From: a virus
IMG/VR virus record: IMGVR_UViG_3300007351_000027
Reading direction: 5' to 3' (one strand)
Length of the DNA: 42,210 nucleotides
Each line of letters starts with the position of its first letter. Position 1 is the first letter of the stretch. Of this stretch, positions 7,878-42,210 are shown one piece after another. Below the pieces are notes generated by a model. That model was not told the origin of the DNA and did no database searches. It saw only the letters and a program-made list of their open reading frames with translations. The position numbers and the translations under genes were made by a program.

Positions 7878-8243
7878 ATGGAGGCTCCTACCTTCTTTCT
7901 CGATGTCTCTGGAATTATTACACCAGGCTGCGGCCCCACATTGAAGGGGTGCGACTACTATTGGTCTGGAGAGCCCTGGAATCGCCTCTCAATGGTCGTC
8001 ATTCGAGAAGCGGGCACAAGCCCCTCTTGCTCTGTGAATATGCAAGTCTTACTGGGCAACGACACATGGGTGACGCTGACCGGAGCACCAGGGTATGGAA
8101 TGGGAGGGCCGTTAGCTGTCACATACCTGGCTTATGGCCCTGCATACGCCTGTGCAAGTCTTGGCCCATTTCGACAAGCCCGATGGTGGGTGCAGAGCAC
8201 TGGCGGCAACACCCTCCGAATTCAAATGTTAGCCGGTCGTTAA
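7878..8243 (+). CDS. Hypothetical Cys-containing protein; last gene of the rightward block (possible moron)
   Basis: 121 aa. Starts 1 nt after the holin stop. Its 3' end converges on and overlaps the leftward wHTH gene by 15 nt. Confidence 0.45.
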   Translation: MEAPTFFLDVSGIITPGCGPTLKGCDYYWSGEPWNRLSMVVIREAGTSPSCSVNMQVLLGNDTWVTLTGAPGYGMGGPLAVTYLAYGPAYACASLGPFRQARWWVQSTGGNTLRIQMLAGR

Positions 8244-8612
8244 TTTCGCTTCTTGCCCATCCGCCCGCAATCCAATCTTCCCATCCGGGAGCTGCTTCAC
8301 AGGTGATCCCTTCTTTTTGATCAGGTAGTAGACGGTGCTCCACCCCACGTTGAGATGCCGCTTCACGTCTCCCGGCATGGCAGGTCCATGCTTCGAGAGA
8401 TACGACACTAGCTGCTTCTCTCGTGTCTGTTTCCCTTTCGAGTGCGTTGCGGTATCCTCTGGTGGCGGTGGCACCAATTTCTCCAACAGAGACGGCTCGA
8501 TGCCAGTGTCTAGCTCTTCCAACATGAGATTTCGAAGCTGCTGCAGCTTAGCAATGCGCTCGTTAATTTCGCTCATCACTTCTGCCAGGGCCTCTTTCCG
8601 TTTTCCGTCCAT
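8229..8612 (-). CDS. Winged-HTH DNA-binding protein beside attP (regulator or directionality-factor candidate)
   Basis: Start placed at the internal ATG 8612 with SD GGAGGG 7 nt upstream; the track start 8672 lies inside the -35 box. Coiled-coil N-terminus, and C-terminal LVSYLSKHGPAMPGDVKRHLNVGWSTVYYLIKKKG is HTH-like. Confidence 0.6.
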   Translation of the reverse strand: MDGKRKEALAEVMSEINERIAKLQQLRNLMLEELDTGIEPSLLEKLVPPPPEDTATHSKGKQTREKQLVSYLSKHGPAMPGDVKRHLNVGWSTVYYLIKKKGSPVKQLPDGKIGLRADGQEAKLTTG

Positions 8613-8643
8613 TGTTGTACCCTCCGTAGTCAAAGAGAATTCC

Positions 8644-8672
8644 ATCCTAGCAGAGTGTAAAACCACTGTCAA
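8644..8672 (-). promoter_or_regulatory. Sigma70-type promoter for the wHTH gene
   Basis: Minus strand reads TTGACA (8667-8672), 17-nt spacer, TAGGAT (8644-8649). The -35 context TTGACAGTG is shared with other promoters in this genome. Confidence 0.5.
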
Positions 8673-8700
8673 CAGGATTTATTCCGTCAGAGAGTGGGCT

Positions 8701-8721
8701 TGTGCTACCACTGTGCTACCA
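8701..8721 (+). repeat. Tandem direct repeat TGTGCTACCA x2 (candidate integrase arm-type sites, P arm)
   Basis: TGTGCTACCA-c-TGTGCTACCA, perfect copies with 11-bp phasing, in the non-coding region next to int. Confidence 0.55.
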
Positions 8722-8787
8722 GGCTTGACTAAATTAGCCCAACAGCAAACAATGTGCCACAATAAGGAAATCGCAGGGATGCGGGTT

Positions 8788-8816
8788 TTGACGCAGGTGA
8801 CAGCGAATTATATAAG
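8788..8816 (+). promoter_or_regulatory. Candidate promoter inside the attP region, reading toward the int 3' end
   Basis: TTGACG (8788-8793), 17 nt, TATAAG (8811-8816). A strong plus-strand terminator lies about 215 nt downstream. Confidence 0.35.
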
Positions 8817-8880
8817 TGCGAACATCCGGCTGGATTTCATGTGAAGAAACAACGCATTGCGTAGTGCAGGATGTGGCCGA

Positions 8881-8898
8881 TGCTACCGGATTGCTACC
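8881..8898 (+). repeat. Tandem direct repeat TGCTACC x2 (candidate arm-type sites, P' arm)
   Basis: TGCTACCggatTGCTACC, with 11-bp phasing and the same orientation and core as the 8701-8721 pair. Confidence 0.5.
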
Positions 8899-8993
8899 AC
8901 CAAGTTGACAATCTGCCGAGTCTCGGCTACGCTAGTGAGCGCAAGCAGGCTATTCGGATTCGGGTCGCTGCCCTCCGTCTGACCCTGCTTGTG

Positions 8994-9033
8994 GGAGCTT
9001 CAAGTGCGTGCAGGCGCTTGGGGCTCCTTTTTT
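8994..9033 (+). terminator. Rho-independent terminator (plus strand), convergent with the int stop codon
   Basis: 14-bp stem GGAGCTTCAAGTGC/GCGCTTGGGGCTCC (three G-U pairs), 6-nt loop, then TTTTTT (9028-9033). Confidence 0.7.
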
Positions 9034-10102
9034 ATTGGGCAGCATCGAGTCGGTCTACGGCTCCGTGATTGATCGTAGGCAGCCATTTCCCGTACGTGTC
9101 TGACGTAAGCTGGATACTGGCGTGTCCCAATTGCCGTTGGACGTACGTAATGGCCTCCCCCTGCTGTAGGAGCAGGGAGGCGTAGGTATGCCGTAGGCAA
9201 TGCGGCGAGAAGTGCTGAGGGAGCCCAGCCGCCTTCAGGATGCGGGACATGGCCCAGCGGACAAATCCGTCTCGCAAGGTCGCTCCGGCTGAATTAGGGA
9301 ACACCCACGGTACACCAGCGTTCCGCTGATTCTGCCAGTCCGACAGCACGGCAGTCAAATGCATCGACATATCGACTGTTCGACCATGCCCAGACTTGGG
9401 CAGCTGCAGCCGGCCTTTTGAGTAGGACCGAGAGACGCGGATCGTTCGATTCGCCAAGTCCAAGTCATCCCACTGCAGCGCCAGGGCCTCCCCGAGACGT
9501 AGCCCTGTGCCGGCCAGGAGGCAGAACAAAGGATACCAACGCTCGTGATTCTTGGCTTCCGTCAGGAACGTCTGCCGCTGTTGTGCTGTCATAGCCTTGA
9601 TTTGTTCTTGCCGCGTTGTGTGCGACGTAACGAGTCGAAGCTGACGCCCCAGCTTCTCAGCCGGATTAGCCGTCAGCAGACCGTCATCAACGGCTGCCCG
9701 CAGGACGGATCGGATTGTGGCGTGAATGCTTCGGACGGTGCTTTTGGAGAGTCCTGCAGAAAGTTTATCGACCAGCAGGGACTTAATGCGGCCTCGGTGG
9801 ATCTGGCGAACGGGTTGTGTGCCAAAAGTGGGAAGGAGATGATCCCGCAGCAGCTGCTGGTAGTTATCAGCAGTGCTCTCTCGGACAGTGCTTTTGATGG
9901 TAGCCAACCAGTGCTGCGTGTATGTGTCCAGGCTGATATTCGCTGCCACGACCGGCTGCGACCACTGGCGAGTCTTCGGACGCTCGATATCAAGGAAGTC
10001 TTCGGCTTCTTGTTTGGTGTCAAACGTCTTCCAGCGACGGAGACCAGCTCCGTCACGCCAATCTGCGACCCATTTCCCTCTTCGTTTCCGTACGCACGCC
10101 AT
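9032..10102 (-). CDS. int: Tyrosine recombinase / phage integrase
   Basis: 356 aa. TGLRLGEALAL (Arg I), HCLRHTYAS (H-x-x-R) and LGHASIQLTSDTYGKW (catalytic Tyr region). The N-terminus is SAM-like. Confidence 0.92.
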   Translation of the reverse strand: MACVRKRRGKWVADWRDGAGLRRWKTFDTKQEAEDFLDIERPKTRQWSQPVVAANISLDTYTQHWLATIKSTVRESTADNYQQLLRDHLLPTFGTQPVRQIHRGRIKSLLVDKLSAGLSKSTVRSIHATIRSVLRAAVDDGLLTANPAEKLGRQLRLVTSHTTRQEQIKAMTAQQRQTFLTEAKNHERWYPLFCLLAGTGLRLGEALALQWDDLDLANRTIRVSRSYSKGRLQLPKSGHGRTVDMSMHLTAVLSDWQNQRNAGVPWVFPNSAGATLRDGFVRWAMSRILKAAGLPQHFSPHCLRHTYASLLLQQGEAITYVQRQLGHASIQLTSDTYGKWLPTINHGAVDRLDAAQ

Positions 10103-10310
10103 GTAGGAAGCCCTCCAACTGTTCTGCTGTCACTCGTACCAGTCGGCCTATCTTAACATGCGGAAGCTTGCCTTGTCTAGCCAATTCGTAGGCTCGATAT
10201 TCAGAGATTTGCAGGATCTGTGCCACCTGTGGCAGTGTGTAAACTCTACGTTCTGGCTGTTCGGGGATGTAGTCACGCTCCCATTCTGCTTGTTCGTTAT
10301 ACTCACCCAT
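10053..10310 (-). CDS. xis: Excisionase-family (MerR-like HTH) DNA-binding protein
   Basis: 85 aa. YTLPQVAQILQISEYRAYELARQGKLPHVKIGRLVRV matches the excisionase/HTH_17 pattern. Lies immediately upstream of and overlapping int. Confidence 0.75.
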   Translation of the reverse strand: MGEYNEQAEWERDYIPEQPERRVYTLPQVAQILQISEYRAYELARQGKLPHVKIGRLVRVTAEQLEGFLHGVRTETKREMGRRLA

Positions 10311-12762: not shown

Positions 12763-13271
12763 ACTTCACCATACCCATCAGGTCGAATATCTGTGCTACG
12801 ACGGCCCCATGAAGGAAATGAAAAACGCCTACCGCCGCCCTTCAAGGAACAATGGTATTCAAAATCGTATTTTATACGACGATCTGCAGGCCCTTCTCTG
12901 CGTTCTAGTGACACTGTTCTGCCGTATTCTAAAATACTCTCCTGCCTCTCCTGCTCTTTCGCAATGCCTAGTCCCAGAGGCATATAGAGGCGCACGTCAA
13001 ATGCCCGGCTCTTCAGTCCCTCAGACTCCACCTTGCCAGTCTTCGCCCATGCCAGCAGTGCCAGAATGTGCTTCATCACGTAGACTGCCCACACAGCCCG
13101 AGGGCCTACCGGCTTCTGACAGTGCGGACAGCAGACCAGCTCGCCTACGGTTTTGAAGTTGTTAAGCCGGTCAGAGTTACCAATTGTGTAATCGGCTCCT
13201 TTCGTCTCCCCGAGCTTCTTATCCTGCTCGATGCACTCGTTTAGTAATTCATTAAATTCTGCAGCTTCCAT
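12759..13271 (-). CDS. DUF1599/MazG-like all-alpha NTP-pyrophosphohydrolase-fold protein (tentative)
   Basis: KGADYT..NSDRLNNFK...AVWAVYVMKHILALLAWAKTG resembles nucleotide-modification-associated domain 1 / MazG-like proteins. Has a basic C-terminal tail. Confidence 0.4.
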   Translation of the reverse strand: MEAAEFNELLNECIEQDKKLGETKGADYTIGNSDRLNNFKTVGELVCCPHCQKPVGPRAVWAVYVMKHILALLAWAKTGKVESEGLKSRAFDVRLYMPLGLGIAKEQERQESILEYGRTVSLERREGPADRRIKYDFEYHCSLKGGGRRFSFPSWGRRSTDIRPDGYGEV

Positions 13272-13627
13272 TCATCACCCTTTCGTGCCAGGTACATCAG
13301 TGTCAGCAAGTGTTCTAGTGTCACAACAGCCAATGCTTCACTGTTATTCCGCCGTGTTACCAGTACTGGACGCCGGCCTACAGCTCTGGCATTCGTCTCT
13401 GCCTGCTTCCAGCAGGCGGGGAGTGAGAACGACTCCACGGCTTTCGCCTCGAATGCCACATGAAGCGGATCTGCCAGCACCGTGTTCAGCGCCATAACAT
13501 CGACGCCCTTCTCGCCCATGATGGCGCACTTCACCAACTCAGGATCATAATTAAACACTTGGATAATTAGATCCCGAATATGCTGTTGCAACCGCCTACC
13601 TTTGGCCTTTGCGCTTTTAGGTTTCAT
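13241..13627 (-). CDS. PD-(D/E)XK nuclease, Holliday-junction-resolvase-like
   Basis: 128 aa. N-terminal KAKGRRLQQ, then GVDVMA...VAFEAKAV (D...E-x-K), then a basic RRPVLVTRRN segment. Confidence 0.5.
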   Translation of the reverse strand: MKPKSAKAKGRRLQQHIRDLIIQVFNYDPELVKCAIMGEKGVDVMALNTVLADPLHVAFEAKAVESFSLPACWKQAETNARAVGRRPVLVTRRNNSEALAVVTLEHLLTLMYLARKGDEWKLQNLMNY

Positions 13628-13946
13628 TGATACACAATCCTTGAAATGCGATTTTCCGCATATCAGCCAAATGTGCTCTGACTGCTTCTATTTGGCCCAC
13701 AGAGCCCAACCCCTGCGTTGGACGAATACCAGCCTCGTAAAGCTGATCCATCAACCGTTGCGCTTGCTCTGGATCTAATCGCAACGTAGGAACATACGGT
13801 TGGCCCGGTCTATATTCAGTTAACGTCAAAGGTTGAGCGACACTACGAGAAATGCCTTCGACTTCCGAATAGAATATGATCTTGTACGTGGGATCAAAAA
13901 AAGTAACTGGCTCCACGAAGCACTTGAGCCTGATGTCTCCTATCAT
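13617..13946 (-). CDS. Hypothetical protein
   Basis: 109 aa, co-directional, short overlaps with both neighbours. Confidence 0.5.
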   Translation of the reverse strand: MIGDIRLKCFVEPVTFFDPTYKIIFYSEVEGISRSVAQPLTLTEYRPGQPYVPTLRLDPEQAQRLMDQLYEAGIRPTQGLGSVGQIEAVRAHLADMRKIAFQGLCINET

Positions 13947-14170
13947 TTACCCCACTCCTTTTGCGACCACTTCTCGTTCAATTCTTCAAGGTCGTGTAAA
14001 ATTTCAAGCACGCCTCGGCCCGAGTCAGTCTTAGGGGTATACGCAGCTCCAAGCAATAAATCATCAGCCACCAGCTTTATTACCTGCTTAAGAATCGTGC
14101 GTTTTGTCTGCCGATACTTTCGGCTTGTCGGAATACCTATGTTGTCCAAAACGTATCTTGGAACACTCAT
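13943..14170 (-). CDS. Hypothetical protein
   Basis: 75 aa. 4-nt overlap with the downstream gene. Confidence 0.5.
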   Translation of the reverse strand: MSVPRYVLDNIGIPTSRKYRQTKRTILKQVIKLVADDLLLGAAYTPKTDSGRGVLEILHDLEELNEKWSQKEWGK

Positions 14171-19110: not shown

Positions 19111-19137
19111 ATAAAAAACCCTGCCACCTGAGCAGGG
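19111..19137 (-). terminator. Rho-independent terminator (minus strand)
   Basis: Minus strand reads CCCTGC-tcaggtg-GCAGGG followed by TTTTTTAT. Confidence 0.7.
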
Positions 19138-19428
19138 TCTAGGTTGTTGCTGGGAGCCGCCAGCGGTCCTTGCGTCCTTCAGCTATTGGCCCCAGCTAAG
19201 CTTTTTTACCAGCACTCCTAAAATTTAAGCCCACTTCCGGCGTCCTATAAGGGAACGCTCGCCTCGTGACAGGCACTCCGATTTGAGCAGGCTGATACGC
19301 CACGGCCACCTGCTATTTGTCGGCTCTTCCGCATCAAAGTGTCAGCGTACCCGGGGTCTGACACTGGCGTTAGTTTATAATACGGAAGCGGGCTTACTGC
19401 TTTATGCTGATATTCTCTACTCGTTTAA
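19111..19428 (-). ncRNA. Candidate structured ncRNA or long structured polA 3' UTR (~315 nt)
   Basis: No ORF with an SD. Nested stems seen by eye: CTTCCG/CGGAAG enclosing GTGTCAG/CTGACAC, AGCAGG/CCTGCT, and GCTGGGGCC/GGCTCCCAGC. Bounded by a candidate promoter and the terminator. Confidence 0.3.
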
Positions 19429-19433
19429 CAGTC

Positions 19434-19462
19434 ACTATAACAGCTTTATTCCCACCTATCCA
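19434..19462 (-). promoter_or_regulatory. Candidate extended -10 promoter overlapping the polA stop
   Basis: Minus strand reads TGGATA (19457-19462), 17 nt, TGtTATAGT (-10 at 19434-19439). The -35 is weak. Confidence 0.3.
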
Positions 19463-21839
19463 GCACTGCTACCTCTGCTGTAATCGGCACTGCCATATCC
19501 ACGCCAAAAGCTGCCTTGATCAGCCCATTCAAATTACCAGCTACCCGCTCAACAGCTGCAAGTGCAATTGCGTCATCCTTCGGAGCCACATCATCTATAA
19601 ACGCATCGTGTCCCTCTTGCACCATCAGCGGAAGCCCCCGATGCCACACAAGCCGCTTATACTCGTCCTGCACTGCCAGCCGGTAAATCACCAGAATCGA
19701 ATGCCCGGCTGACTGCACGATACGATTGATCGCCTCTCGCTCGATGGCCGGCGTAATTGCCTGATCAAACTCCCACCACTGGCCAAACGGATTCTCGATC
19801 TCACCAGTCGAGTGTAACTTCTGCAGCACATGCTCTTTCCAGCGGCTAACGCCGGGGTAGAGATTCTGCACCTTATGGTACAGCCTCCAATCCTCCTTCC
19901 CCGCTACTGCAAATAGCTTCTCTGGCCCAGCTCCGTACACGCCGGCAAAGTTAAACGTCTTGCCGATCTTCCGTTGCTCCGGCGTCACTTGCTCAGGCCG
20001 GATGCCAAATACACGAGCAGCAGCGTCCCTATGGATATCGACACCATCAATAAAAAGCTGACAAAGTTTCGGATCTGCACTGAGATGGGAAATGATGCGG
20101 TACTCGATGGCAGACAAGTCGCTGACAAGCAACTTACCGCCGATATAACGAGAAGTAAATAGTCCACGTAGCGGTTTCTCCACATTCTGCATGTTCGGCT
20201 GCTTACATCGCAGCCTAGTTGTCTCTGCCCCTGACACCTGGTAGTGAGCATGAATCAGTCCGTCACCGTCAGGATGCCAAATCTTGCGCCGGTACTCGTA
20301 GCAATTCGTATTCAGCTTCTTATGCGTGCTCTTGACTTCGAGCAGCAACTTCGCAGCCGGACACTTGTCTTGGATCTCGCCCAACACCTGCTCATTTGTC
20401 GCATCAACATCAAAGCCCATCGCATGAAATAGCGCCTTCATCTGCTGAGGGCTATCGACGTTAATCCCTGCTTCCTCAAATCGAGCCACAAAGTCAGCCT
20501 GCTTCTTCGGCAACTTCGACGGATCTTTCGACTTGATTTGCGCCGTGGCGATATGTAAGAAGTCAGCCTTGTAACGCCAAGCCAGCTCCTGCAGCTCCTT
20601 CTCTTTTACTGCTGCATACGTCTCCAGCTCTGCGATCTTGTTATCAAGTGCTGCCGGATCAACCGCAATACCGTTCAGCTCCGTGTCGCGGATTGCCGGC
20701 AGATAATCCATTGCCAGCTGAAAGCTTGATGACGGATGCTCTTCCTTCTGCTGATCCCTGAATAGGGCATAGTGATACATCAAATCCAGCGTCAAGTACG
20801 GTTCAATCAGCTCCGGCATTTGACTGGATAAGATGCCTCGATCCCACTCCGTATGCACCTTGGCTTCATATGCTGAGGCTCCGTACATTGACTTTGCCAG
20901 CCACTTCAAGCCAACACTATGACGACTCCGCTTCGGCTGCGTCGTATGCCACAAATACGTGTCGTGAAACGTGGCTTTTGGAAACTCGATGCCTTCAGCT
21001 CCGAGGAACACCACGTCGCCCTTGATGTTGTGGCCATAGATAACGCCAGTATATTCAGCAGCCAACTTCTTCAGCAGGGAATAGAAGCCGGGATGATCGG
21101 ACGGATGTAACTCAGGAATCAAACAGAACCACGTTCCGTCCGTCAGCCCGAGCATGGCTAGCTTGCCGCCCTCGTAAGGATAGACAAACTGCTCATCCCG
21201 ATCACGAGCATCTTTAGGCACGTCGATTTCAATATCCAAACCAATGGCCGGCTGTTGAAACAGCTCGATTAAATACTGATCCATAGGCAGCCCCGGCACA
21301 ATAAACTTTCGATCTGGTAACTCATACTGAAATGGGCGCAGCACCGTCTCTAGTACTACTCGTGCGTGCTCTCGCTTCTCATCAAACTGCCATTGGCTGA
21401 TGCCATACGTATGCTGAACAAGGTGCTGATCCTTCATGCGGGCTTTGTACAGCAGCCCACCCTTGCCTTCCAGCTTCCGCACGCCGCCATAGAGCGAGCT
21501 AACAGCTTCCTCGCCAATCGTCACAATCGGCAGAGTCGGGTATTGCAGTAGCAGCGGGTTGACGTACGCTTCCCGGCATTCTTTGATCACCGGCAAATCC
21601 GGCTTGTACCGATTGCGGCAATTCGCCGCAGCTACGATCACCGGAGTAATGTCAAGCCCGTCACACACCTGCTGCAACGTGTCCAGCTCATTCTGCGTCA
21701 ACGGCTGCGTCACCAACAGAATGATGTTAGGGGCCATCTCAGGGTCATCAAACGGCTCAACAAACTGCTTCTCCTTCTGTACACCCCAAGGGCAACTTGC
21801 ACAGCCGGGAATCTTCAATGGCTTCTTAGCCTTTGACAC
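19446..21839 (-). CDS. Family-A DNA polymerase with 3'-5' exonuclease domain and an N-terminal UDG-fold-like domain
   Basis: Exo motifs GLDIEID, HNIKGDVVFL, YLTLDLMY. Pol motifs DLSAIEYR (A), RKIGKTFNFAGVYG (B), GHDAF (C). The N-terminal ~190 aa (GCASCPW...IILLVTQP...IVTIGEEA) has a family-4 UDG-like layout (tentative). Confidence 0.9.
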   Translation of the reverse strand: MSKAKKPLKIPGCASCPWGVQKEKQFVEPFDDPEMAPNIILLVTQPLTQNELDTLQQVCDGLDITPVIVAAANCRNRYKPDLPVIKECREAYVNPLLLQYPTLPIVTIGEEAVSSLYGGVRKLEGKGGLLYKARMKDQHLVQHTYGISQWQFDEKREHARVVLETVLRPFQYELPDRKFIVPGLPMDQYLIELFQQPAIGLDIEIDVPKDARDRDEQFVYPYEGGKLAMLGLTDGTWFCLIPELHPSDHPGFYSLLKKLAAEYTGVIYGHNIKGDVVFLGAEGIEFPKATFHDTYLWHTTQPKRSRHSVGLKWLAKSMYGASAYEAKVHTEWDRGILSSQMPELIEPYLTLDLMYHYALFRDQQKEEHPSSSFQLAMDYLPAIRDTELNGIAVDPAALDNKIAELETYAAVKEKELQELAWRYKADFLHIATAQIKSKDPSKLPKKQADFVARFEEAGINVDSPQQMKALFHAMGFDVDATNEQVLGEIQDKCPAAKLLLEVKSTHKKLNTNCYEYRRKIWHPDGDGLIHAHYQVSGAETTRLRCKQPNMQNVEKPLRGLFTSRYIGGKLLVSDLSAIEYRIISHLSADPKLCQLFIDGVDIHRDAAARVFGIRPEQVTPEQRKIGKTFNFAGVYGAGPEKLFAVAGKEDWRLYHKVQNLYPGVSRWKEHVLQKLHSTGEIENPFGQWWEFDQAITPAIEREAINRIVQSAGHSILVIYRLAVQDEYKRLVWHRGLPLMVQEGHDAFIDDVAPKDDAIALAAVERVAGNLNGLIKAAFGVDMAVPITAEVAVLDRWE

Positions 21840-22986
21840 ACAGCACCTGTCGCAATTGCGTGACTATTTTGACTAGATCCTCTTGCTGCTGAATAACTGA
21901 TTCAATCGGTTTGTAAGCACCAGGAATCTCGTCAAGCACAGCAGCATCCTTACGGCACTCGACCCCATGGGTCTGGGCTGCCAGATCGTCGATGGTGAAC
22001 GATCGCTTGGCCTGCCCACGAGACATCTTTCGCCCGGCCCCATGCGACGCAGAGCAGAACGACTCGGGATTGCCGAGACCGCGCACAATGAACGACGAGG
22101 TACCCATTGAGCCCGGGATAATGCCGAATTCGCCTTCTCGGGCGCTGATCGCACCCTTCCGGGTGACGAAGACTTCTTCCCCGAAATGGACTTCCTCCGA
22201 GACATAGTTGTGGTGGCACTGAATCGGCGGATCGAAGTTAACCATCAGGCCATGAAACGCCGCGCTGACCACGGCCATAAGACGCGCCAGCATCACCGAC
22301 CGGTTCAGGTACGCATACCGCTGTGCCCACAGCAGATCATGGCGGTACGCGGCCATTTCTGGCGTGCCAGCCAAGAACACGGCGAGGTCTCGATCGGGCA
22401 GGTCATGATTGTGTGCGAGCGTCTTGGCAGTCTCAATATGGATCTCGGCCAGCGTTTTGCCGATGTTGCGTGACCCCGAGTGCAGCATGATCCACACCGT
22501 GTCGTGGGTATCCAGGCATACCTCAATGAAGTGATTCCCGCCCCCGAGCGTCCCGAGCTGGCGCCGTGCCCGGCCTTCCAGATCCTGGACCTCACGCGCT
22601 AAGCACTCGAAGGTCTCAAACAGGTCCGCCCCGCTATGGACGGGATCGGGATGGTCACTGAACCCTACCGGAATGGTCGCCTCTATCTCAGCGCGCAAGG
22701 CAGAGAGGGTATCTGGAAGCTGTGCGGCCGTCAGGGAGGTCTTCACCGCCGCCATGCCGCATCCAATGTCCACGCCCACGGCTGCGGGGCTTATGGCGTT
22801 CTTCATCGCAATGACGGAGCCAACGGTAGCACCCTTCCCGTAATGCACATCTGGCATGACTGCAACGTGGTGATACGCCCACGGCAACGCAGCGATGTTC
22901 TTCAACTGATCAAGTGCCTGTAACTCCACTTCATACACAGGAGCCCACAGCTTAATCGGCACTACCTTTCCTTGAAGAGTATCCAT
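21826..22986 (-). CDS. rtcB: RtcB 3'-phosphate/5'-hydroxyl RNA ligase
   Basis: 386 aa carrying the RtcB signature blocks VDIGCGM, GGGNHFIE, LHSGSRNIG, CHHNY and SASHGAGR. SD TAGGAGAAA. Overlaps the polA start by 14 nt. Confidence 0.93.
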   Translation of the reverse strand: MDTLQGKVVPIKLWAPVYEVELQALDQLKNIAALPWAYHHVAVMPDVHYGKGATVGSVIAMKNAISPAAVGVDIGCGMAAVKTSLTAAQLPDTLSALRAEIEATIPVGFSDHPDPVHSGADLFETFECLAREVQDLEGRARRQLGTLGGGNHFIEVCLDTHDTVWIMLHSGSRNIGKTLAEIHIETAKTLAHNHDLPDRDLAVFLAGTPEMAAYRHDLLWAQRYAYLNRSVMLARLMAVVSAAFHGLMVNFDPPIQCHHNYVSEEVHFGEEVFVTRKGAISAREGEFGIIPGSMGTSSFIVRGLGNPESFCSASHGAGRKMSRGQAKRSFTIDDLAAQTHGVECRKDAAVLDEIPGAYKPIESVIQQQEDLVKIVTQLRQVLCVKG

Positions 22987-23003
22987 CCGTTTTTCTCCTA
23001 AAA

Positions 23004-23080
23004 TGGTCTGCGAGGCAGGATTTGAACCTGCGGCCTCCTGGTTCCAAGCCAGGTCGTCTACCAGACTGACTTACTCGCAG
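23004..23080 (-). tRNA. tRNA-Pro: tRNA-Pro (anticodon UGG), CCA-encoded, 77 nt
   Basis: Hand-folded: acceptor CTGCGAG/CTCGCAG, anticodon stem CCTGG/CCAGG with loop CTTGGAA, T-arm GCAGG-TTCAAAT-CCTGC, A73, CCA. C1:G72 and A73 are as in bacterial tRNA-Pro. D-stem has one A-G mismatch, and position 37 is A. Confidence 0.85.
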
Positions 23081-25712: not shown

Positions 25713-25985
25713 TCACGATCCCTCCTTCTCACCTTCACGCTTCACAATCACTTCAGATCCCCCGAAATCGTAGTCCGACAGGGGGATACCACCATTCCGA
25801 AACGTCGGGATTGCTGTTGCTCCCCCGACCTGCTCTGACTTCGGAGGCTTCGGGTACTCGACAAATCCGCAATTGACACACTTCCAATGCCCGTCCAACC
25901 GTTCCCCAGCGCCTTCTGTTGCAAACTCATAGATAACGTCCGACACCCACCCGTAGGCACTGCCACCGCACTTGGGACACTGCAC
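25713..25985 (-). CDS. Zinc-ribbon protein; first gene of the middle (replication) transcription unit
   Basis: CPKCGG...CVNCG. GTG start about 18 nt downstream of the predicted TSS of the 26010-26039 promoter. Confidence 0.55.
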   Translation of the reverse strand: MQCPKCGGSAYGWVSDVIYEFATEGAGERLDGHWKCVNCGFVEYPKPPKSEQVGGATAIPTFRNGGIPLSDYDFGGSEVIVKREGEKEGS

Positions 25986-27794: not shown

Positions 27795-28130
27795 TCAATC
27801 CTCACTTTCGCCGTAAAAGTCTCCGTAAAAGTCTCTCAAATTCCGTTCAAGGCGTTTGAGATTGCGGTCATAATGCCAGTCCGTGCAATCGAGATAACCG
27901 GGCATCGAATAGCGACCAGCATACCAAGATTTTCCTAAGAATTGAAACGTGTCAGGATCGGCCCTACCAACGCGACATTCGTAACATGCCAATGTTCCGG
28001 CTTGCATAGCGTCCCTACGCTCGTTATGATCCACGTATGCCCATTCGTGCGTATACAACGTCGCTCCACATCGCTTACACTCAGCGGAATACAAGTGTCC
28101 CTTGACCGTGATTTCAAGCTCCATGCTCAT
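27795..28130 (-). CDS. Hypothetical Cys-containing protein
   Basis: 111 aa, with CKRCG...CYEC zinc-ribbon-like pairs. Confidence 0.5.
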   Translation of the reverse strand: MSMELEITVKGHLYSAECKRCGATLYTHEWAYVDHNERRDAMQAGTLACYECRVGRADPDTFQFLGKSWYAGRYSMPGYLDCTDWHYDRNLKRLERNLRDFYGDFYGESED

Positions 28131-28132
28131 AG

Positions 28133-28294
28133 CTACGCCTTGCCTTTCTGCCAGTCCGTTTTCTGCAAGCCGGATACTGGCCGATGGGGTGTGGCGCTAT
28201 CCTGCTTCACTTCTGCCGGACGTTTGAGTAACGAGCCCGTCACAGCGTTTAGCACAGCCTTTGCGTAGGCTTTCTTTTCGTCGATGGTTAACAC
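28133..28294 (-). CDS. Small basic protein (53 aa)
   Basis: Hand-translated: VLTIDEKKAYAKAVLNAVTGSLLKRPAEVKQDSATPHRPVSGLQKTDWQKGKA. GTG start with GGAGG 6 nt upstream. Replaces the track ORF 28197-28403. Confidence 0.45.
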   Translation of the reverse strand: MLTIDEKKAYAKAVLNAVTGSLLKRPAEVKQDSATPHRPVSGLQKTDWQKGKA

Positions 28295-28362
28295 GGTCTG
28301 CCTCCGTTGTTAACACGTATAGTAAAGCACTGACAGCGCAAACCCGAACCAAAACCAGGGAC

Positions 28363-28530
28363 TCATGACTCCCTTTCTTCCAGTTTAAATTCATAATAGT
28401 CATTGAGGTACTTTGAAATTGCGTTGAATACTAAAGTTTCTGCATCCATAAACCCCATTTCGGTGGATACTCGGTTAATCTCTTTAGCCATGCGTTCAGG
28501 TACGATCATGTGAATTTCACGGTTTATCAT
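28363..28530 (-). CDS. Ribbon-helix-helix (CopG/Arc-like) DNA-binding protein (55 aa)
   Basis: Hand-translated: MINREIHMIVPERMAKEINRVSTEMGFMDAETLVFNAISKYLNDYYEFKLEERES. Beta-strand then two helices, as in RHH proteins. SD GAAAGAGGTG. Confidence 0.55.
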   Translation of the reverse strand: MINREIHMIVPERMAKEINRVSTEMGFMDAETLVFNAISKYLNDYYEFKLEERES

Positions 28531-28543
28531 TTGACACCTCTTT

Positions 28544-28771
28544 CTATAAAAGCTCAGTAAATGAGGCTACATTGTTGGTGCAACATTCCGTAGTGATAAC
28601 AAGTAACCGCGCTCCGCTATTGTCAACCTGGACGTACCATTTGTCTAACAGCAATTTGTGGCAATGTTGTTTTGATGTGCTTTTCGGTAAAAGGGATTGC
28701 TGAAAGCGAACAATCGAACGTGCAGCATTGGCTAATTCTTTTCCAGTGTAAGATGTTTGGCCTTGGCCCAT
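28544..28771 (-). CDS. Hypothetical early protein
   Basis: 75 aa. GGAGG 9 nt upstream of the ATG. Confidence 0.5.
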   Translation of the reverse strand: MGQGQTSYTGKELANAARSIVRFQQSLLPKSTSKQHCHKLLLDKWYVQVDNSGARLLVITTECCTNNVASFTELL

Positions 28772-28773
28772 TG

Positions 28774-28899
28774 TTATTTACCTCCACGTTGCACACTCAT
28801 GGCGTAACCAGGAGTAGCAGTCTTAAAGAGATAGCCCACAGCTGCGTGAACACTGAACAGGACTGCCAAAAACAGCGCCAGACCGACTAGAGCTTTCAT
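28774..28899 (-). CDS. Small signal-peptide/TM protein (41 aa)
   Basis: Hand-translated: MKALVGLALFLAVLFSVHAAVGYLFKTATPGYAMSVQRGGK. ATGA overlap with the upstream gene. Confidence 0.45.
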   Translation of the reverse strand: MKALVGLALFLAVLFSVHAAVGYLFKTATPGYAMSVQRGGK

Positions 28900-29060
28900 G
28901 ACTCGCCGTCCTTTCCTTCACACGCCTTAAGGAAGCGTTTAGCATTGAATCGGGGATACCTGGAAGCAAAAGCAATAGCTAGATTGTGAGCAGAAATACT
29001 CCCCCTGTTACCACACACACGAATCAAATTAGCGATCAATTCAAAGTCTTTTTTCGTCAT
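28896..29060 (-). CDS. Small early protein (54 aa)
   Basis: Hand-translated: MTKKDFELIANLIRVCGNRGSISAHNLAIAFASRYPRFNAKRFLKACEGKDGES. GGAGG 8 nt upstream. Confidence 0.5.
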   Translation of the reverse strand: MTKKDFELIANLIRVCGNRGSISAHNLAIAFASRYPRFNAKRFLKACEGKDGES

Positions 29061-29063
29061 GGC

Positions 29064-29219
29064 TTAATCCTCCACAGTGTCGCGGATATCTTCAAGCCAA
29101 TTGAGCCCTATTGCCAGTCCGCGACGAAACCCCGATTGAAACCGGGTATTGCTTGCTTGCCCCTCTTGCCACGCTTTCAAGTCTTCAATGGCTTTCAGTA
29201 TCATTTCTTGCTTCTTCAT
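29064..29219 (-). CDS. Small early protein (51 aa); first gene of the leftward early operon
   Basis: Hand-translated: MKKQEMILKAIEDLKAWQEGQASNTRFQSGFRRGLAIGLNWLEDIRDTVED. GGAGGG 8 nt upstream. About 50 nt downstream of the predicted TSS. Confidence 0.5.
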   Translation of the reverse strand: MKKQEMILKAIEDLKAWQEGQASNTRFQSGFRRGLAIGLNWLEDIRDTVED

Positions 29220-29275
29220 CGTTCGCGCCCTCCTGCCACTGTGATAGTGCTAGAGTCATGCCACACTGTAGTGCC

Positions 29276-29304
29276 ATTCTAGCGTCCCGCTGTCACAGTG
29301 TCAA
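29276..29304 (-). promoter_or_regulatory. Strong sigma70-type promoter (leftward early operon, PL-like)
   Basis: Minus strand reads TTGACA (29299-29304), 17 nt, TAGAAT (29276-29281). The spacer contains TGTGACAG. Confidence 0.65.
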
Positions 29305-29326
29305 GGGAAAATATGTAGGCTGTTAC

Positions 29327-29350
29327 TGTCATAGCTGACAATAGTTGTCA
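29327..29350. promoter_or_regulatory. Operator-like cluster of alternating TGTCA/TGACA half-sites
   Basis: TGTCA-tagc-TGACA-atagt-TGTCA, just upstream of the -35 of the leftward promoter and overlapping the stop of the 67-aa gene. Confidence 0.45.
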
Positions 29351-29532
29351 GTGCAGGCAATACAGACCTGAGAGCCGGAACGAAATGAAGCACGGAGCTT
29401 AACCTTGCCGCATTGCTGGCAAGTCTTCGGTTGTCGTTCCTGATGCCGTTTGTTCCAGTCTTCTGGAACACGTAAGGACTCTGTAATACGTTGCTTAATG
29501 TCGTGAATGGCATCCACGTGCTTTTGTCGCAT
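29329..29532 (-). CDS. 67-aa zinc-ribbon protein in the cI-equivalent position (immunity-regulator candidate)
   Basis: Start set at ATG 29532 (MRQKHVD...) with GGGAG 8 nt upstream. C-terminal CQQCG...CIAC. Lies between divergent strong promoters. Confidence 0.5.
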   Translation of the reverse strand: MRQKHVDAIHDIKQRITESLRVPEDWNKRHQERQPKTCQQCGKVKLRASFRSGSQVCIACTDNYCQL

Positions 29533-29560
29533 CTTTTTTACTCCCACTGTCATTTTTTGC

Positions 29561-29590
29561 TTGACAAATGACTGTCAACTGTGCTATAGT
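29561..29590 (+). promoter_or_regulatory. Strong sigma70-type extended -10 promoter (rightward, PR-like)
   Basis: TTGACA (29561-66), 18 nt, TGcTATAGT (-10 at 29585-90). TTGACA-aatgac-TGTCAA inverted repeat covers the -35 and spacer. The palindrome GCTATAGT gives a -10-like TATAGC on the other strand. Confidence 0.65.
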
Positions 29591-29720
29591 AGGTCTTGAC
29601 AGGCATGCTACCCTAGCGAAGTCGCGCACGAGCAGCGAATACGGCGCTGCCACACAAGCAGACGGCGCGCAAGGCGCCGAAGCAGCGCGAAGCAATCGCT
29701 CCAAAGCAGCTGATAGGTGC

Positions 29721-29741
29721 GTCCTGTCATACTGACAGGAC
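29721..29741. repeat. Perfect 9-bp inverted repeat GTCCTGTCA-tac-TGACAGGAC
   Basis: Read directly. Contains the TGTCA/TGACA half-sites. No U-tract follows, so it is not a canonical terminator. Confidence 0.8.
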
Positions 29742-29768
29742 CATTGAGTGGCAGCTTATATTGCAGTA

Positions 29769-29811
29769 ACTACATCTAGTGCTATAAGCTACTGTAAGCA
29801 CTAGCTGTAGT
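29769..29811. repeat. Long imperfect hairpin/inverted repeat (ACTACAtCTAGTGCT ... AGCACTAGcTGTAGT)
   Basis: 8-bp perfect core CTAGTGCT/AGCACTAG extended by ACTACA/TGTAGT around a single mismatch. 13-nt loop. Confidence 0.7.
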
Positions 29812-29837
29812 ATTCGCAGATAATAGCAAGACCCCCG

Positions 29838-29854
29838 AATGACACTGTGTCATT
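29838..29854. repeat. Perfect palindrome AATGACAC-t-GTGTCATT
   Basis: Read directly. 8-bp arms and a 1-nt centre. Operator-like. Confidence 0.8.
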
Positions 29855-29900
29855 AGTAGCAACATGCAGGCAGGCGCAAGTGGTAGCAGAATAGTAGCAA

Positions 29901-30066
29901 TCCGGCAGTAAAAGCACTGCAAGCTATTGTATTTATTGCATATATAAGCTATATAGCTGCAATTCCAATATCTGCACACAGAGAAATCCGGCAGAAAATC
30001 AACAGCTTGAACCCCGTCCGGCAGAAATGACGGGGGATAGAGCCCCCAGCTCCCCCCGGCAAAAGC
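29901..30066 (+). repeat. Iteron-like direct repeats TCCGGCAG(t/a)AAA flanking an AT-rich core (candidate ori or pac element)
   Basis: Copies at 29901-29914, 29987-30000 and 30017-30030, plus a degenerate one at 30055-30066. AT-rich 29924-29972 contains the palindrome AGCTATATAGCT (29947-29958). TAGTAGCAA occurs at 29854 and 29893. Confidence 0.5.
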
Positions 30067-30145
30067 TGTAGTAGTCCTCCCCTTACCATTTTTGCCGTTT
30101 TTGACAGTATGTTGCGAAATTGTGACAGGCGCGTGCATTTTGTGC

Positions 30146-30175
30146 TTGACAGTGGGGGTTGAAGTGTGATATAAT
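30146..30175 (+). promoter_or_regulatory. Strong sigma70-type extended -10 promoter (late/structural operon)
   Basis: TTGACA (30146-51), 18 nt, TGaTATAAT (-10 at 30170-75). Preceded by further TGACAG copies at 30102 and 30123. Confidence 0.7.
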
Positions 30176-30245
30176 GCTGTTACAAAGTGGCAAAGTGTCA
30201 CTGACGGTGCCCTCGACCGGATCGGGGAGAGTGGAGAGTAAGGGA

Positions 30246-30845
30246 GTGGCAACACAGGCAGAGCGGTTAGCGCGTCTTCGGAAGCGGTACGGGACGCGGA
30301 ATGAGAGTTTTGAGGCTGATTTGGTTTCAATGCTCGTGGGGCGGAATTTTTCGACAGCGGCGCAGTCGGTGACAGACACGACTCGTGTCATGCTGACGGG
30401 CTCAGACATCTTGGTGCCCAAATTTGTGGCAGGGGCGCAGTTTCGTTGGCGGATCGCCATGACGAAGACAGCGGCTGGGACGGCTGCCAGTACGTTCGAC
30501 ATTGGCGTGGGTAAGACAGCTTCAGCGGCTGGATTGACGGCGCGGGTGTCGTTTACGAAGCCGGCTGGCACGGCGGCGGCGGACGAGGCGTTGATTGAAA
30601 TCGTGTGTACGTGCCGTAGTGTGGGCGCGTCCGGGGTGCTCGTGGGTCAGTTTCAGTTGACGCACAATTTGGCTTCGACTGGTCATGCGACGATTCCCTG
30701 TGTAGTGGTGAATACGGTGTCGTCTGGTTTCGACAATGCCGGCTATGATAATTACGTCGGTGTTATGGTGACGGCTGGGGCATCAGATAGCTTGACGTTT
30801 GAGTTAGTGCAGGCTGAAGCGGTATACGTCAGCACGGTGGGGTAA
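30246..30845 (+). CDS. Hypothetical beta-rich protein; first gene of the late operon
   Basis: The track ORF starts inside the promoter. GTG 30246 is preferred (GGAGAG 7 nt upstream). Ala/Thr/Gly/Val-rich, with no motif recognised. Confidence 0.5.
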   Translation: MATQAERLARLRKRYGTRNESFEADLVSMLVGRNFSTAAQSVTDTTRVMLTGSDILVPKFVAGAQFRWRIAMTKTAAGTAASTFDIGVGKTASAAGLTARVSFTKPAGTAAADEALIEIVCTCRSVGASGVLVGQFQLTHNLASTGHATIPCVVVNTVSSGFDNAGYDNYVGVMVTAGASDSLTFELVQAEAVYVSTVG

Positions 30846-30860
30846 GCTGGAATAAAGCAG

Positions 30861-30877
30861 CTGTCAGAGACTGTCAG
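30861..30877 (+). promoter_or_regulatory. Tandem CTGTCAG-aga-CTGTCAG overlapping the RBS of the HNH-like gene
   Basis: Two direct copies with 10-bp phasing. The second runs into AGGAGGG, 7 nt before ATG 30884. Confidence 0.35.
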
Positions 30878-30883
30878 GAGGGT

Positions 30884-31348
30884 ATGAAGGGGTTGCACGG
30901 ACAGCAGTTTGACAGACTATTTGTGATGAGGCCATGGTCAGTTAGACACGGCTCTATGGCTACGTGGTTGTGTGAGTGCTGTTGCGGCGAATTTACAATA
31001 GCTTATCAGAAGCACTTGCTGAAAGGTGTTACGCGGTCGTGCGGGTGTCTAAGGCGACAAACAAAGAAAAAGCACGGCCATAGTCCTGACGGCCACAAAA
31101 GCCGCACATATAATTCGTGGTCTGCGATGATTCAGCGTTGTACAAATGCTCAGCATATCAGTTTCGAGTATTATGGCCGTCGTGGTATTGCGGTGTGTGG
31201 GCGTTGGCAAGAATTTAAAAACTTTTTAGCTGACATGGGTGTAAGACCGGTTGGCAAGACGCTTGATCGCATTGATGTAGACGGCAACTATGAGCCGGGT
31301 AATTGTCGATGGGCAACGCCGGCAGAACAGATTGATAACCAGCGGTAA
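30884..31348 (+). CDS. HNH-like endonuclease-family protein, paralogue 3 (packaging-associated position)
   Basis: WLCECCCGE...SCGC and YGRRGIAVCGRWQEFKNFLADMGVRPVGKTLDRIDVDGNYEPGNCRWAT. Immediately upstream of the terminase genes. Confidence 0.65.
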   Translation: MKGLHGQQFDRLFVMRPWSVRHGSMATWLCECCCGEFTIAYQKHLLKGVTRSCGCLRRQTKKKHGHSPDGHKSRTYNSWSAMIQRCTNAQHISFEYYGRRGIAVCGRWQEFKNFLADMGVRPVGKTLDRIDVDGNYEPGNCRWATPAEQIDNQR

Positions 31349-32678: not shown

Positions 32679-34067
32679 GTGCAGTTTGACTCCGCGAGAT
32701 TCTTCAAGGATCTCGGGGTAGCCACCGATGACTTTCAAGATCGGATCTGTCAGTCTCCGGCTCGGTTTATCCTCAATCGCGCTGCTCGTCGAACGGGCAA
32801 AAGCTTTGTGGCTGCGAAGTGGGCTGTGGCCCATCGACGCGGCATTCTTGTGCCTAACACCCGAGGCTGGATTGTCGGCCCGACATATGACTTGGCGGAA
32901 AAAGAGTTTCGCTACGTGGTCGAGATTCTGGAGCGGGCGCACAAGAAAGTGGGGCTGCCGAGGCCCGACGTGCTGCACCATAACGCCAAGATGGGTGACC
33001 TGTATATCAGGATGCCTTGGGGCGCGGAAGTCATCGGCAAGTCGGCAGAGCGTCCGCTGAGTTTGGTCGGAGAAGAGAACGACTGGATCATCATGTCGGA
33101 GGCGGCGCAGCAGAAGGAAGATACCTGGTATCGGTATCTGCGTCCGACTCTTTCATCGAGAATGGGAAGTGTGATCTTCCCGACGACGCCTGATATTTCC
33201 GGGGCGTGGCTCTACGAGTTAGAGCTAAAAATGCCGGAGATGAATGCAGACGCCCGGAAAGAAGAATGGGCGTTGTACCACCGTGCGGCATGGGATACGC
33301 CGCACTACAACAAAGAGGAAATTGAGGCAGCTCGACGCGAGCTGTCTGAAGACGCCTTCCTGGAGCAATTCGGCGGGGAGTGGACGTTTCACGAGGGCCG
33401 CGTGTTCAAGGCGTATAGCCCTCTGGTGCATCTTGTTGATCCGTTCCCGCTGCCGTCGAGTTGGAAATACTGGAGTGGAGTTGATTTCGGGCATCGAGAC
33501 GCCACGGCGGTGTTGTGGGCCGGGCAGTCGAGTGCCGGCGACTTTTATATCTTTCGGGAATACTACGCGAGTAATCGCCCTACGGAAGTCCACACGGCGG
33601 TGGTCAAGGCCACGGATCGGCCTCTTCCGAGGGTTATCAGAGTGTCGGACCATCATGCGCTCGGAAAGCAGTTGGCCCATGATTGGCGGACATACGGCGT
33701 CCCGACACTTGATGCCGGCGTAGACCGGAAGTCGCGGAGGGATCGCGTGATGGCGATGTTGGAGCCCCGCGACTATCACTCGCCCTACCATGTGCAGATG
33801 CGCGGGGGTGGCGTAGCGAAGTATCCCCGTTTGTACATCTTCCGTGGTCGATGTCCCAACTTGATCCGCGAGATACAGCTGCTGAAGTGGAAAGAAGGTA
33901 CGCGGCAGGAAGGGACATACGGCGATACGGTCGGAGACGATCACGCCGTTGATGCGTTGGAATACATGATCTATTACGCGACTCGCGGGCGGAAGTATCG
34001 GAAGCCGGCCAGTGAGTACGCGACACCAGGACGGCGGGCTCCGGTGTCGAGCCTGACAGGGTATTAA
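32679..34067 (+). CDS. terL: Terminase large subunit
   Basis: 462 aa. ATPase motifs AARRTGKSF (Walker A-like) and DWIIMSEAA (Walker B-like). Nuclease-domain acidic motifs VDFGHRDATAV and GDDHAVDALEY. Confidence 0.88.
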   Translation: MQFDSARFFKDLGVATDDFQDRICQSPARFILNRAARRTGKSFVAAKWAVAHRRGILVPNTRGWIVGPTYDLAEKEFRYVVEILERAHKKVGLPRPDVLHHNAKMGDLYIRMPWGAEVIGKSAERPLSLVGEENDWIIMSEAAQQKEDTWYRYLRPTLSSRMGSVIFPTTPDISGAWLYELELKMPEMNADARKEEWALYHRAAWDTPHYNKEEIEAARRELSEDAFLEQFGGEWTFHEGRVFKAYSPLVHLVDPFPLPSSWKYWSGVDFGHRDATAVLWAGQSSAGDFYIFREYYASNRPTEVHTAVVKATDRPLPRVIRVSDHHALGKQLAHDWRTYGVPTLDAGVDRKSRRDRVMAMLEPRDYHSPYHVQMRGGGVAKYPRLYIFRGRCPNLIREIQLLKWKEGTRQEGTYGDTVGDDHAVDALEYMIYYATRGRKYRKPASEYATPGRRAPVSSLTGY

Positions 34068-41822: not shown

Positions 41823-42210
41823 GTGACGTTCGATGAATATGGACTCGCAGAGATCCGGTGCATGGATTGCGGCGTGCCAATGAAACGCCGGGTGCTACGA
41901 AAACAGGCCATTGTAGACGAAAAGAAGAACCTGCTTGGATATGTCACTGACGAAGCTGGAAACCGAGTGGTCGTTCCAATCTTGGTACGGACTCGTCACT
42001 TTCACGAGCAGAAAGTCTCAACCGGATCAAACTCGTTCGCAAGAATCTTCCGCTGCAAGGAATGCAGTAGTGTACCGGTGGACAAGGATAAGTTGACGCG
42101 GCAAATCAAGCTGGCATGGGTTGAGGAAATGACGTTTGCAGGGAAGTCGCTATCAGATAAGAAGCGGCATTTGAAGGCGAATGAGCGTATGGCGGTAAGG
42201 GGAATCCTGT
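41823..42210 (+). CDS. Zinc-ribbon protein upstream of the tail fibre (runs off the window and finishes at 99-101 after circularisation)
   Basis: Hand-translated from GTG 41823: (V)TFDEYGLAEIRCMDCGVPMKRR...FRCKECSSVPVDKD...MAVRGIL. Missing from the ORF track because it has no in-window stop. Confidence 0.55.
   Translation, partial: MTFDEYGLAEIRCMDCGVPMKRRVLRKQAIVDEKKNLLGYVTDEAGNRVVVPILVRTRHFHEQKVSTGSNSFARIFRCKECSSVPVDKDKLTRQIKLAWVEEMTFAGKSLSDKKRHLKANERMAVRGIL
42112..42210. repeat. Terminal exact duplicate of 1-99
   Basis: See feature 1-99. Confidence 0.9.

Follow-up and report, generated by a model that had tools for sequence, protein, structure and literature searches.

Architecture of the control region

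The virus genome considered here (IMG/VR record IMGVR_UViG_3300007351_000027; 42,210 nucleotides (nt), the whole stretch being hereafter called the window) contains a control region at 29.2-30.3 kb in which a small gene for a four-cysteine (Cys4) zinc-ribbon protein is enclosed by near-consensus predicted promoters and repeated operator-like sites. The genes and the GC skew split the genome into two arms, and this region is their sole divergent junction. Its elements, together with a further promoter inside the early arm, are the following:

29234-29243, minus strand: CACAGTGGCA site, an exact CAMAGTGNCA word at about +27 to +36 of the early transcript
29304->29276, minus strand: early leftward promoter P29304, TTGACA-17-TAGAAT, 11/12
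29291-29303: operator-like 13-mer TGTCACAGTGTCA over the -35 and spacer of P29304
29329-29553, minus strand: zinc-ribbon gene, 67 aa from ATG 29532 (29329-29532) or 74 aa from the in-frame ATG 29553
29561-29590, plus strand: distal rightward promoter P29561, TTGACA-18-TATAGT with TG, 11/12
29721-29741: perfect palindrome GTCCTGTCA-TAC-TGACAGGAC (9+3+9)
29838-29854: perfect palindrome AATGACAC-T-GTGTCATT (8+1+8)
30146-30175, plus strand: proximal rightward promoter P30146, TTGACA-18-TATAAT with TG, 12/12
30183-30200, plus strand: tandem sites CAAAGTGGCA and CAAAGTGTCA, at about +2 to +19 of P30146
26039->26010, minus strand: middle promoter P26039, TTGACA-18-TATAGT with TG, at least 11/12, inside the early arm

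The promoters were obtained from a sigma-70 consensus scan of the whole genome, scored out of 12, in which activity is predicted from sequence. Only four sites genome-wide reach at least 11/12; each is directed into downstream genes, and three of them fall within 29276-30175. The scan thus recovered both strong promoters of a preliminary description of this DNA (29276-29304 and 29561-29590, the rightward one with TG) and added P30146, which that description did not contain. P29304 directs the minus arm, with its small early genes followed by replication genes and the integrase. The two rightward promoters form a tandem pair, 585 bp apart, separated by ~555 nt of DNA free of open reading frames (ORFs), and they are themselves tandem copies, the 30146 promoter being 71% identical to 29551-29588 over 38 nt. 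The first plus-arm gene begins only after P30146, and no plausible ORF is present between 29591 and ~30243, which bears out the previous statement that nothing cro-like follows the rightward promoter for ~650 nt.

Operator-like sites at the promoters

The pentamer TGTCA/TGACA occurs 17 times in 29225-30240 for 2.1 expected (P ~1e-10), which is the densest cluster of the genome, and when pentamers within TTGACA/TGTCAA hexamers are set aside, 11 remain for 1.6 expected (P ~8e-7). All the half-sites that had been listed previously are present, and these counts show that the motif is enriched in this region. The spaced form TGWCA-N3-TGWCA is found three times in the genome, always in the control region (0.16 expected), a number reached in none of 100 shuffles. 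The pentamer further extends to a 10-bp word, CAMAGTGNCA, derived after inspection of this same region, of which the genome contains six exact copies for 0.87 expected, five of the six being in 29234-30200.

All four promoters scoring at least 11/12 carry additional TGWCA or CAMAGTGNCA sites, which cover the -35, lie within the spacer or fall between +1 and +20. The 13-mer over P29304 contains CACAGTGTCA, at which position the related phage L008, described below, has TGACAaagTGGCA. P29561 has CTGTCA within its spacer and TTGACAGG at ~+1, while P26039, which putatively belongs to the same regulon, has CTGTCA in its spacer and TGTCACAG right after its -10. A protein bound at such promoter-embedded sites would be expected to block initiation; their placement would suit a repressor.

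The palindromes at 29721-29741 and 29838-29854 are perfect, as had been reported. The first is not a palindrome in L008; at the position aligned to the second, L008 has a different palindrome, GTCACAG-TC-CTGTGAC, which contains the same word. The sequence GCTATAGT, previously described as a palindrome, proved to be a near-palindrome only.

The zinc-ribbon gene and its product

The leftward gene is preceded by a GGGAG Shine-Dalgarno sequence 8 nt before ATG 29532. For its product, N-terminal helices are predicted; towards the C-terminus lies a CxxC-N15-CxxC motif (CQQC...CIAC), and the protein ends seven residues past the second CxxC, with no helix there. The 67-aa ORF with two CxxC knuckles is therefore as first described, and the absence of a helix-turn-helix (HTH) holds as well, no HTH family match having been obtained (the cut-off being E <= 0.1 for HTH, S24 and PF01258 matches). 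Sub-threshold Pfam zinc-ribbon models are its sole profile matches. Sequence searches of the PDB returned no significant relative and chance-level zinc-finger matches only, while a word-indexed search of 5.8 billion proteins retrieved the protein itself alone. An exhaustive HMMER scan of 1.84 billion representatives uncovered one genuine homologue, the 76-aa protein P0005 (51% identity in the HMMER scan, 48-49% by BLAST, E = 2e-9), both members sharing the four cysteines, DIKQRI and ASFRxGSxxCIxCTD; a profile built from these two found nothing new. Single-sequence AlphaFold prediction gave two N-terminal helices, a poorly defined C-terminal part and short strands at the second knuckle.

The HMMER scan also retrieved proteins with tandem C-T-Q-C-G...S-x-x-C-x-x-C modules. 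One of these, a 520-aa match (P0003) in which a signal peptide is visible by eye and tandem Cys4 modules accompany an FGE-sulfatase domain, was discarded as a generic knuckle, uninformative on function. The first viral-contig match of the 74-aa form (L001) was likewise rejected as spurious, being antisense inside a collagen-like tail-fibre gene.

The strongest sense promoter candidate of the gene, and the sole one reaching at least 8/12, is TTGACA(29578)-15-AAAAAT(29552) on the minus strand. It is weak, with a short spacer and a -35 inside the spacer of P29561, and it is not kept in L008. The preliminary description had proposed TATAGC as the only plausible sense -10; this is not sustained, as its -35 matches at 3/6 positions, and TACTAT (29591->29586) or the 29578-29552 candidate is at least as plausible. 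Neither phage has a strong sense promoter for this gene, which fits a low-level regulator, and a weak promoter together with a place upstream of the early promoter is what would be expected of one.

Conservation of the module in a related phage

The homologue P0005 is encoded on the 42,085-bp phage contig SRR33230281_35202 of Logan, 20 kb of which was compared with the window as L008. Its layout, the same as in the window, comprises:

9384->9355: proximal rightward promoter, 12/12, ahead of the virion arm
10001-10231: zinc-ribbon gene, encoding P0005
9973->9945: distal promoter, 11/12, back-to-back with the zinc-ribbon gene
10267-10295: early promoter, 10/12, directly after the gene's stop and into early genes
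13096-13125: middle promoter, counterpart of P26039

As in the window, a noncoding spacer, here of ~560 nt, follows the 12/12 promoter. Protein identity between the two phages differs between functional groups:

Terminase, portal and capsid: 86-88%
Helicase, primase and polymerase: 70-77%
Zinc-ribbon protein: 48%

Within the 20 kb of L008, no homologue was found of the eight small genes after P29304, of the first plus-arm gene or of the window's integrase. Since the flanking genes have been swapped while the structural proteins are 86-88% identical, the gene-plus-promoter module appears to have been selectively retained: the sequences indicate that the zinc-ribbon gene, three promoters and spacer are a unit kept amid a strongly mosaic neighbourhood, and that the protein evolves fast.

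An alignment of the early promoters shows conservation over the -35, some stretches of the spacer, and +1 with the first ~20 transcribed bases. TGNCA pentamers are co-positioned in both, with a central base that sometimes differs (ctgTGACAgcg vs aagTGGCAgcg). Allowing at most one mismatch, nine of the 13 CAMAGTGNCA matches of L008 are in its 1.1-kb control region, and the word is common to both phages at non-aligning positions.

A proposed switch and the alternatives to it

The control region is probably the phage's main operator-controlled early/late region. Within it, the zinc-ribbon protein is the sole candidate regulator that co-occurs with the sites in both genomes, and the sole one encoded inside the region itself; that it reads the TGWCA/CAMAGTGNCA sites is tentatively proposed on these grounds. 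To the complete proposal, namely a master control region whose sites are read by the zinc-ribbon protein in an early/late or lysogeny switch, we assign a probability of about 0.42. It is doubtful that the protein would be a lysogeny-maintenance repressor specifically, and it seems unlikely that it would be a non-HTH, sequence-specific immunity repressor acting through asymmetric words in four promoters and on both arms.

The operator role of the sites, their binding by the zinc-ribbon protein and the direction of regulation are inferred from the arrangement of the DNA, and the switch might operate as follows. Host RNA polymerase of the sigma-70 type would start at the near-consensus P29304, P29561, P30146 and P26039, with P29304 feeding the early, replication and integrase arm and P29561 and P30146 feeding the HNH, terminase and virion arm. 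The zinc-ribbon protein would be made at a low level from its weak promoter, which overlaps P29561, so that the two promoters would compete for polymerase. By binding TGWCA/CAMAGTGNCA words over core promoter elements, it would silence both arms. Relief of binding would then fire the early arm as well as, through a putative packaging or origin element, the tandem late promoters.

Several observations weigh against this proposal. The pentamer spacings are irregular (N3, N3, N3, N4, N5 and N6) and the orientations mixed. Several sites are inside coding sequence: the three alternating half-sites reported at 29327-29350 do exist, but they fall inside or at the stop of the zinc-ribbon coding sequence, and one is accounted for by the codons of a conserved Thr-Asp. 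The pair at 19335/19359 pairs up as a hairpin in a stretch without ORFs, probably at the RNA level and not as an operator. Given that CAMAGTGNCA came from the same region and that the L008 region is homologous, the test of the 10-bp word is independent in part only. No family of Pfam, PHROGs or NCBIfam matches the protein above threshold, beyond its homologue it resembles in sequence only generic Cys4 repeat modules of secreted proteins, and its AlphaFold model is poor (predicted local distance difference test score, pLDDT, 63) and was not used for fold search. No terminator-like site was seen in the scan between the stop of the gene (29329) and P29304; therefore its transcript would read into the early genes. 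The L008 comparisons cover about half of that contig, including the whole promoter-proximal early region. Finally, an equally classical repressor candidate with its own strong promoter is encoded at the far end of the minus arm:

8229-8672 including promoter, minus strand: rival regulator gene, 127 aa, with an N-terminal coiled coil and, by eye, a winged-helix-like C-terminal half
8672->8644, minus strand: promoter P8672, TTGACA-17-TAGGAT with TG, 10/12, with no TGWCA beyond its own -35

This 127-aa protein (8229-8612) is the likeliest repressor if the repressor is encoded elsewhere, an explanation to which we give some, though limited, credence and under which the zinc-ribbon protein would be an accessory early product, such as an RNA-polymerase-binding or anti-host factor or a Cro-like modulator. 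Its gene has the classical setting of a lysogeny gene, beside the integrase and a putative attP, and is isolated between a bidirectional terminator with a 15-bp stem (8993-9028) and the end of the plus arm, whereas no terminator isolates the zinc-ribbon gene from the early operon. P8672 is moreover the only strong promoter without an extra TGWCA, as expected if it is on in a lysogen, and the dimerising coiled coil followed by a helix-turn-helix-wing pattern, with an N-terminal helix predicted confidently by AlphaFold, would suit a repressor. However, the 127-aa protein has no HTH family match, the word-indexed protein search retrieves it alone, and the 20 kb of L008 contains no homologue of it, though L008 shares the motif. 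A PDB sequence search with it gave chance-level H-NS coiled-coil matches, and its single-sequence AlphaFold model was too poor for fold search. This explanation also leaves unaccounted for the retention of the zinc-ribbon gene in its exact slot amid swapped neighbours. A ribbon-helix-helix (RHH)-like ORF in the early arm (28363-28530) is unlikely as a shared regulator because it has no homologue in the promoter-proximal early region of L008 although the sites are shared.

The sites could instead not be dedicated operators. The TGWCA excess would then reflect real or decoy -35-like elements (cTTGACAGTG) together with sites of packaging or replication proteins, the zinc-ribbon gene being merely the first early gene. 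Six of the 17 pentamers are indeed inside TTGACA/TGTCAA, the -35 of P30146, P26039 and P8672 extends to TTGACAGTG (P29304 has TTGACACTG), and the spacer, upstream of the HNH, putative small terminase and terL genes and at the cumulative GC-skew minimum, has other conserved repeats (GTAGCA, TTTNTGCCGGA and a G5/C5 hairpin). This possibility is nonetheless improbable, as the enrichment persists without the hexamers, four separate promoters, among them P26039 at 3.3 kb distance, have sites in their spacers and at +1, and L008 has the 10-bp word as well, in places that do not line up with those of the window. Still less probable is a control based on RNA, in which the ~555-nt untranslated transcript from P29561 would serve as a structured leader, either a put-like antiterminator or a regulatory RNA released by processing, with the palindromes forming hairpins. 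The length of this ORF-free leader is kept in both phages, its fold z-score is -3.2, a palindrome of different sequence is retained at the same aligned position, and GGCGC-N5-GCGCC hairpins are seen by eye in both leaders. Against this, there is no Rfam match, L008 lacks the 29721-29741 palindrome, the blocks that are conserved consist of short direct repeats of a type usual in protein-binding DNA, covariation cannot be established from two sequences, and the sites in the promoter spacers would be left unexplained.

Comparison with known regulatory systems

In its gene order, the region resembles the PL-cI-PRM/PR-cro region of lambda. In both, a small gene is flanked downstream by a strong promoter of its own direction and upstream by a strong divergent one, a weak promoter of its own overlaps the divergent one, operator-like sites are repeated at both flanking promoters, and an integrase is present. 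The lambda-like topology put forward in the preliminary description is retained to that extent, and the slot is kept in L008, but there is no cro or replication arm to the right: nothing cro-like follows the window's rightward promoters, a tandem pair leading into virion genes. The lambda-type repressor is an HTH protein (HTH_3/Xre-type), usually with an S24 autocleavage/oligomerisation domain. The window's protein, in contrast, is a 67/74-aa Cys4 protein with neither an HTH nor an S24 peptidase domain (Pfam, PHROGs and NCBIfam), its gene is not isolated from the early operon by a terminator, and its sites are irregular 5- to 10-bp words instead of three regular 17-bp dyads. The defining features of lambda other than gene position are thus missing. 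The proposed lysis-lysogeny switch keeps its single divergent operator-dense region and its integrase, while the tandem promoters leading into HNH, terminase and virion genes and the irregular spacing do not fit it.

Two families of small Cys4 proteins are functional analogies only. Ogr/Delta of P2/P4 are Cys4 zinc-finger regulators of ~70 aa that activate late promoters lacking a good -35. The window's protein is similarly a phage Cys4 protein of ~70 aa associated with sigma-70 promoters; unlike theirs, these promoters are consensus, its cysteine spacing is CxxC-N15-CxxC against CX2CX22CX4C, and it has no match to the Ogr/Delta family PF04606. C4 zinc fingers of the TraR/DksA type are often found among early phage genes and bind RNA polymerase, not DNA. 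They likewise are small, with helical segments and a CxxC...CxxC knuckle, but the window's protein has no PF01258 match and no helix after its second CxxC, and an action of this type would leave the synteny with operator-rich promoters unexplained.

Stoperators of cluster A mycobacteriophages are many asymmetric sites distributed genome-wide in one orientation relative to transcription. The window shares with the L5-type phages two arms, virion versus early, the latter with a family A DNA polymerase, tRNA and integrase, a strong early promoter at the junction, and a candidate binding word that is short and asymmetric, not a dyad. It differs from them in that its sites are concentrated at promoters (five of six exact copies in 1 kb) with orientations mixed relative to transcription, that no HTH repressor is recognisable in the window, and that identity is 23% for PolA and 27% for the terminase. 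In a comparison with the L5-type system, with its repressor gp71, P_left and stoperators (PMC9283540), a stoperator-type reading was ruled out by the distribution and orientation of the sites.

A divergent promoter-operator region is of a known kind among phages; the type of candidate regulator is undescribed for this role in the open-access literature searched, in which no zinc-ribbon prophage repressor was found. To our knowledge, the prophage repressors characterised so far belong nearly all to the HTH proteins and in a minority of cases to the RHH proteins. If the proposal is correct, a zinc-ribbon repressor with short asymmetric sites would be a new solution to the lysis-lysogeny decision and a new structural class of prophage repressor, seen so far in two genomes. 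A compact repressor/operator pair, orthogonal and working at consensus sigma-70 promoters, would come with it. Should another protein be the regulator, the fully mapped promoter set, the conserved sites and a conserved putative packaging or origin element would still offer starting points for experimental work on an uncultured lineage.

The spacer between the rightward promoters

The spacer (29591-30145) carries features of its own. It has an RNA fold z-score of -3.2 relative to shuffles, and no Rfam family was found in it or elsewhere in the control region. Its repeats are unrelated to the pentamer: GTAGCA is present four times (eight in the L008 spacer, 9385-9945), TCCGGCAG[A/T]AA three times, and TTTNTGCCGGA is confined to the spacer in both phages. 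An AT-rich core (~29926-29975) is accompanied by the G5/C5 hairpin, around which lies the best-conserved noncoding sequence:

29987-30048: conserved block, TCCGGCAGAAA twice and hairpin GGGGGCTCTATCCCCC, terminator-like on the minus strand

Because of these repeats and of its position at the HNH and terminase genes and the GC-skew minimum, the spacer looks like protein-binding DNA. It forms a conserved DNA element in its own right, which probably serves either in packaging or as an origin of replication.

Genome context and further elements

The ends of the window (1-99 and 42112-42210) are an identical 99-bp direct repeat; a complete phage genome of ~42.1 kb (~42,111 bp) has therefore been assembled here as a closed circle. 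Its main landmarks are:

30243 -> 42210 -> 1 -> 8243, plus strand: plus arm, with HNH, terminase and virion genes
30884-31348, plus arm: HNH endonuclease
32679-34067, plus arm: large terminase (terL)
29553 -> 8229, minus strand: minus arm, with small early genes, DnaB-like helicase, primase, tRNA-Pro, RtcB and family A DNA polymerase
9032-10102, minus arm: tyrosine integrase

SU10-type portal, adaptor and capsid families were recorded on the homologous genes of L008. The phage, which carries a tyrosine integrase, is temperate and very novel. A search of 50,697 phage records with the DNA of 28000-31000 gave no match, and the closest isolates by protein identity reach at most 27% (terminase) and 23% (PolA), which suggests a lineage without a cultured relative. 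When terL and the zinc-ribbon alignment were each scanned against genome contigs, nothing matched, so that neither a prophage copy nor a host was identified, and viral-contig scans with the zinc-ribbon alignment and two conserved DNA blocks gave nothing. Relatives found through terL (57% identity; L002-L007) were set aside, as they have extra plus-strand genes upstream and do not reach the divergent region.

The integration modules of the two phages are unrelated and differently placed. The L008 tyrosine integrase (13124-14167) is mid-arm, behind the middle promoter, while that of the window is at the arm end, and this difference indicates that the integration module has been exchanged. Directly after P26039, the window encodes a second small Cys4 protein (25713-25985, minus strand; 90 aa, CPKC...CVNC), which is 56% conserved in L008 (13168-13398) and matches Ogr/Delta at only E = 0.06, below the cut-off. 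In L008, this protein overlaps the called integrase start in a different reading frame, and for this reason the called start is probably over-extended; an assignment of the protein as the integrase N-terminus was rejected, as it is a separate ORF in another frame.

In the window, a putative attP region (8640-9030) is situated between the integrase and the 127-aa gene. Here TGCTACC (GGTAGCA) is directly repeated, 11 bp apart, in two pairs (8703-8724 and 8881-8902) that might serve as arm-type integrase sites, and the region yielded no tRNA fragment.

Among the eight small ORFs that follow P29304 (27434-29219, minus strand) is the 55-aa ORF judged RHH-like by eye. Their layout, with a strong promoter, hypervariable small genes and a DNA-binding-like ORF, resembles by analogy that of acr-aca-type anti-defence operons. 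Between primase and polymerase, an RtcB RNA ligase (E = 1e-125) and an adjacent tRNA-Pro(UGG) occupy 21826-23080. There is no RtcB homologue in the L008 stretch; the ORFs surrounding its primase homologue are followed almost directly by the polymerase gene. The window's pair of RtcB and tRNA looks like an inserted tRNA-repair or anti-defence cassette.

Lastly, ~300 nt without ORF follow the DNA polymerase gene (19116-19446, minus strand; L008 counterpart ~19434-19785) and comprise a hairpin, CAGTGTCAG...CTGACACT, then a strong intrinsic terminator, near-identical in L008. This stretch may be a conserved noncoding RNA, and a weak promoter-like site is present at 19462->19434.

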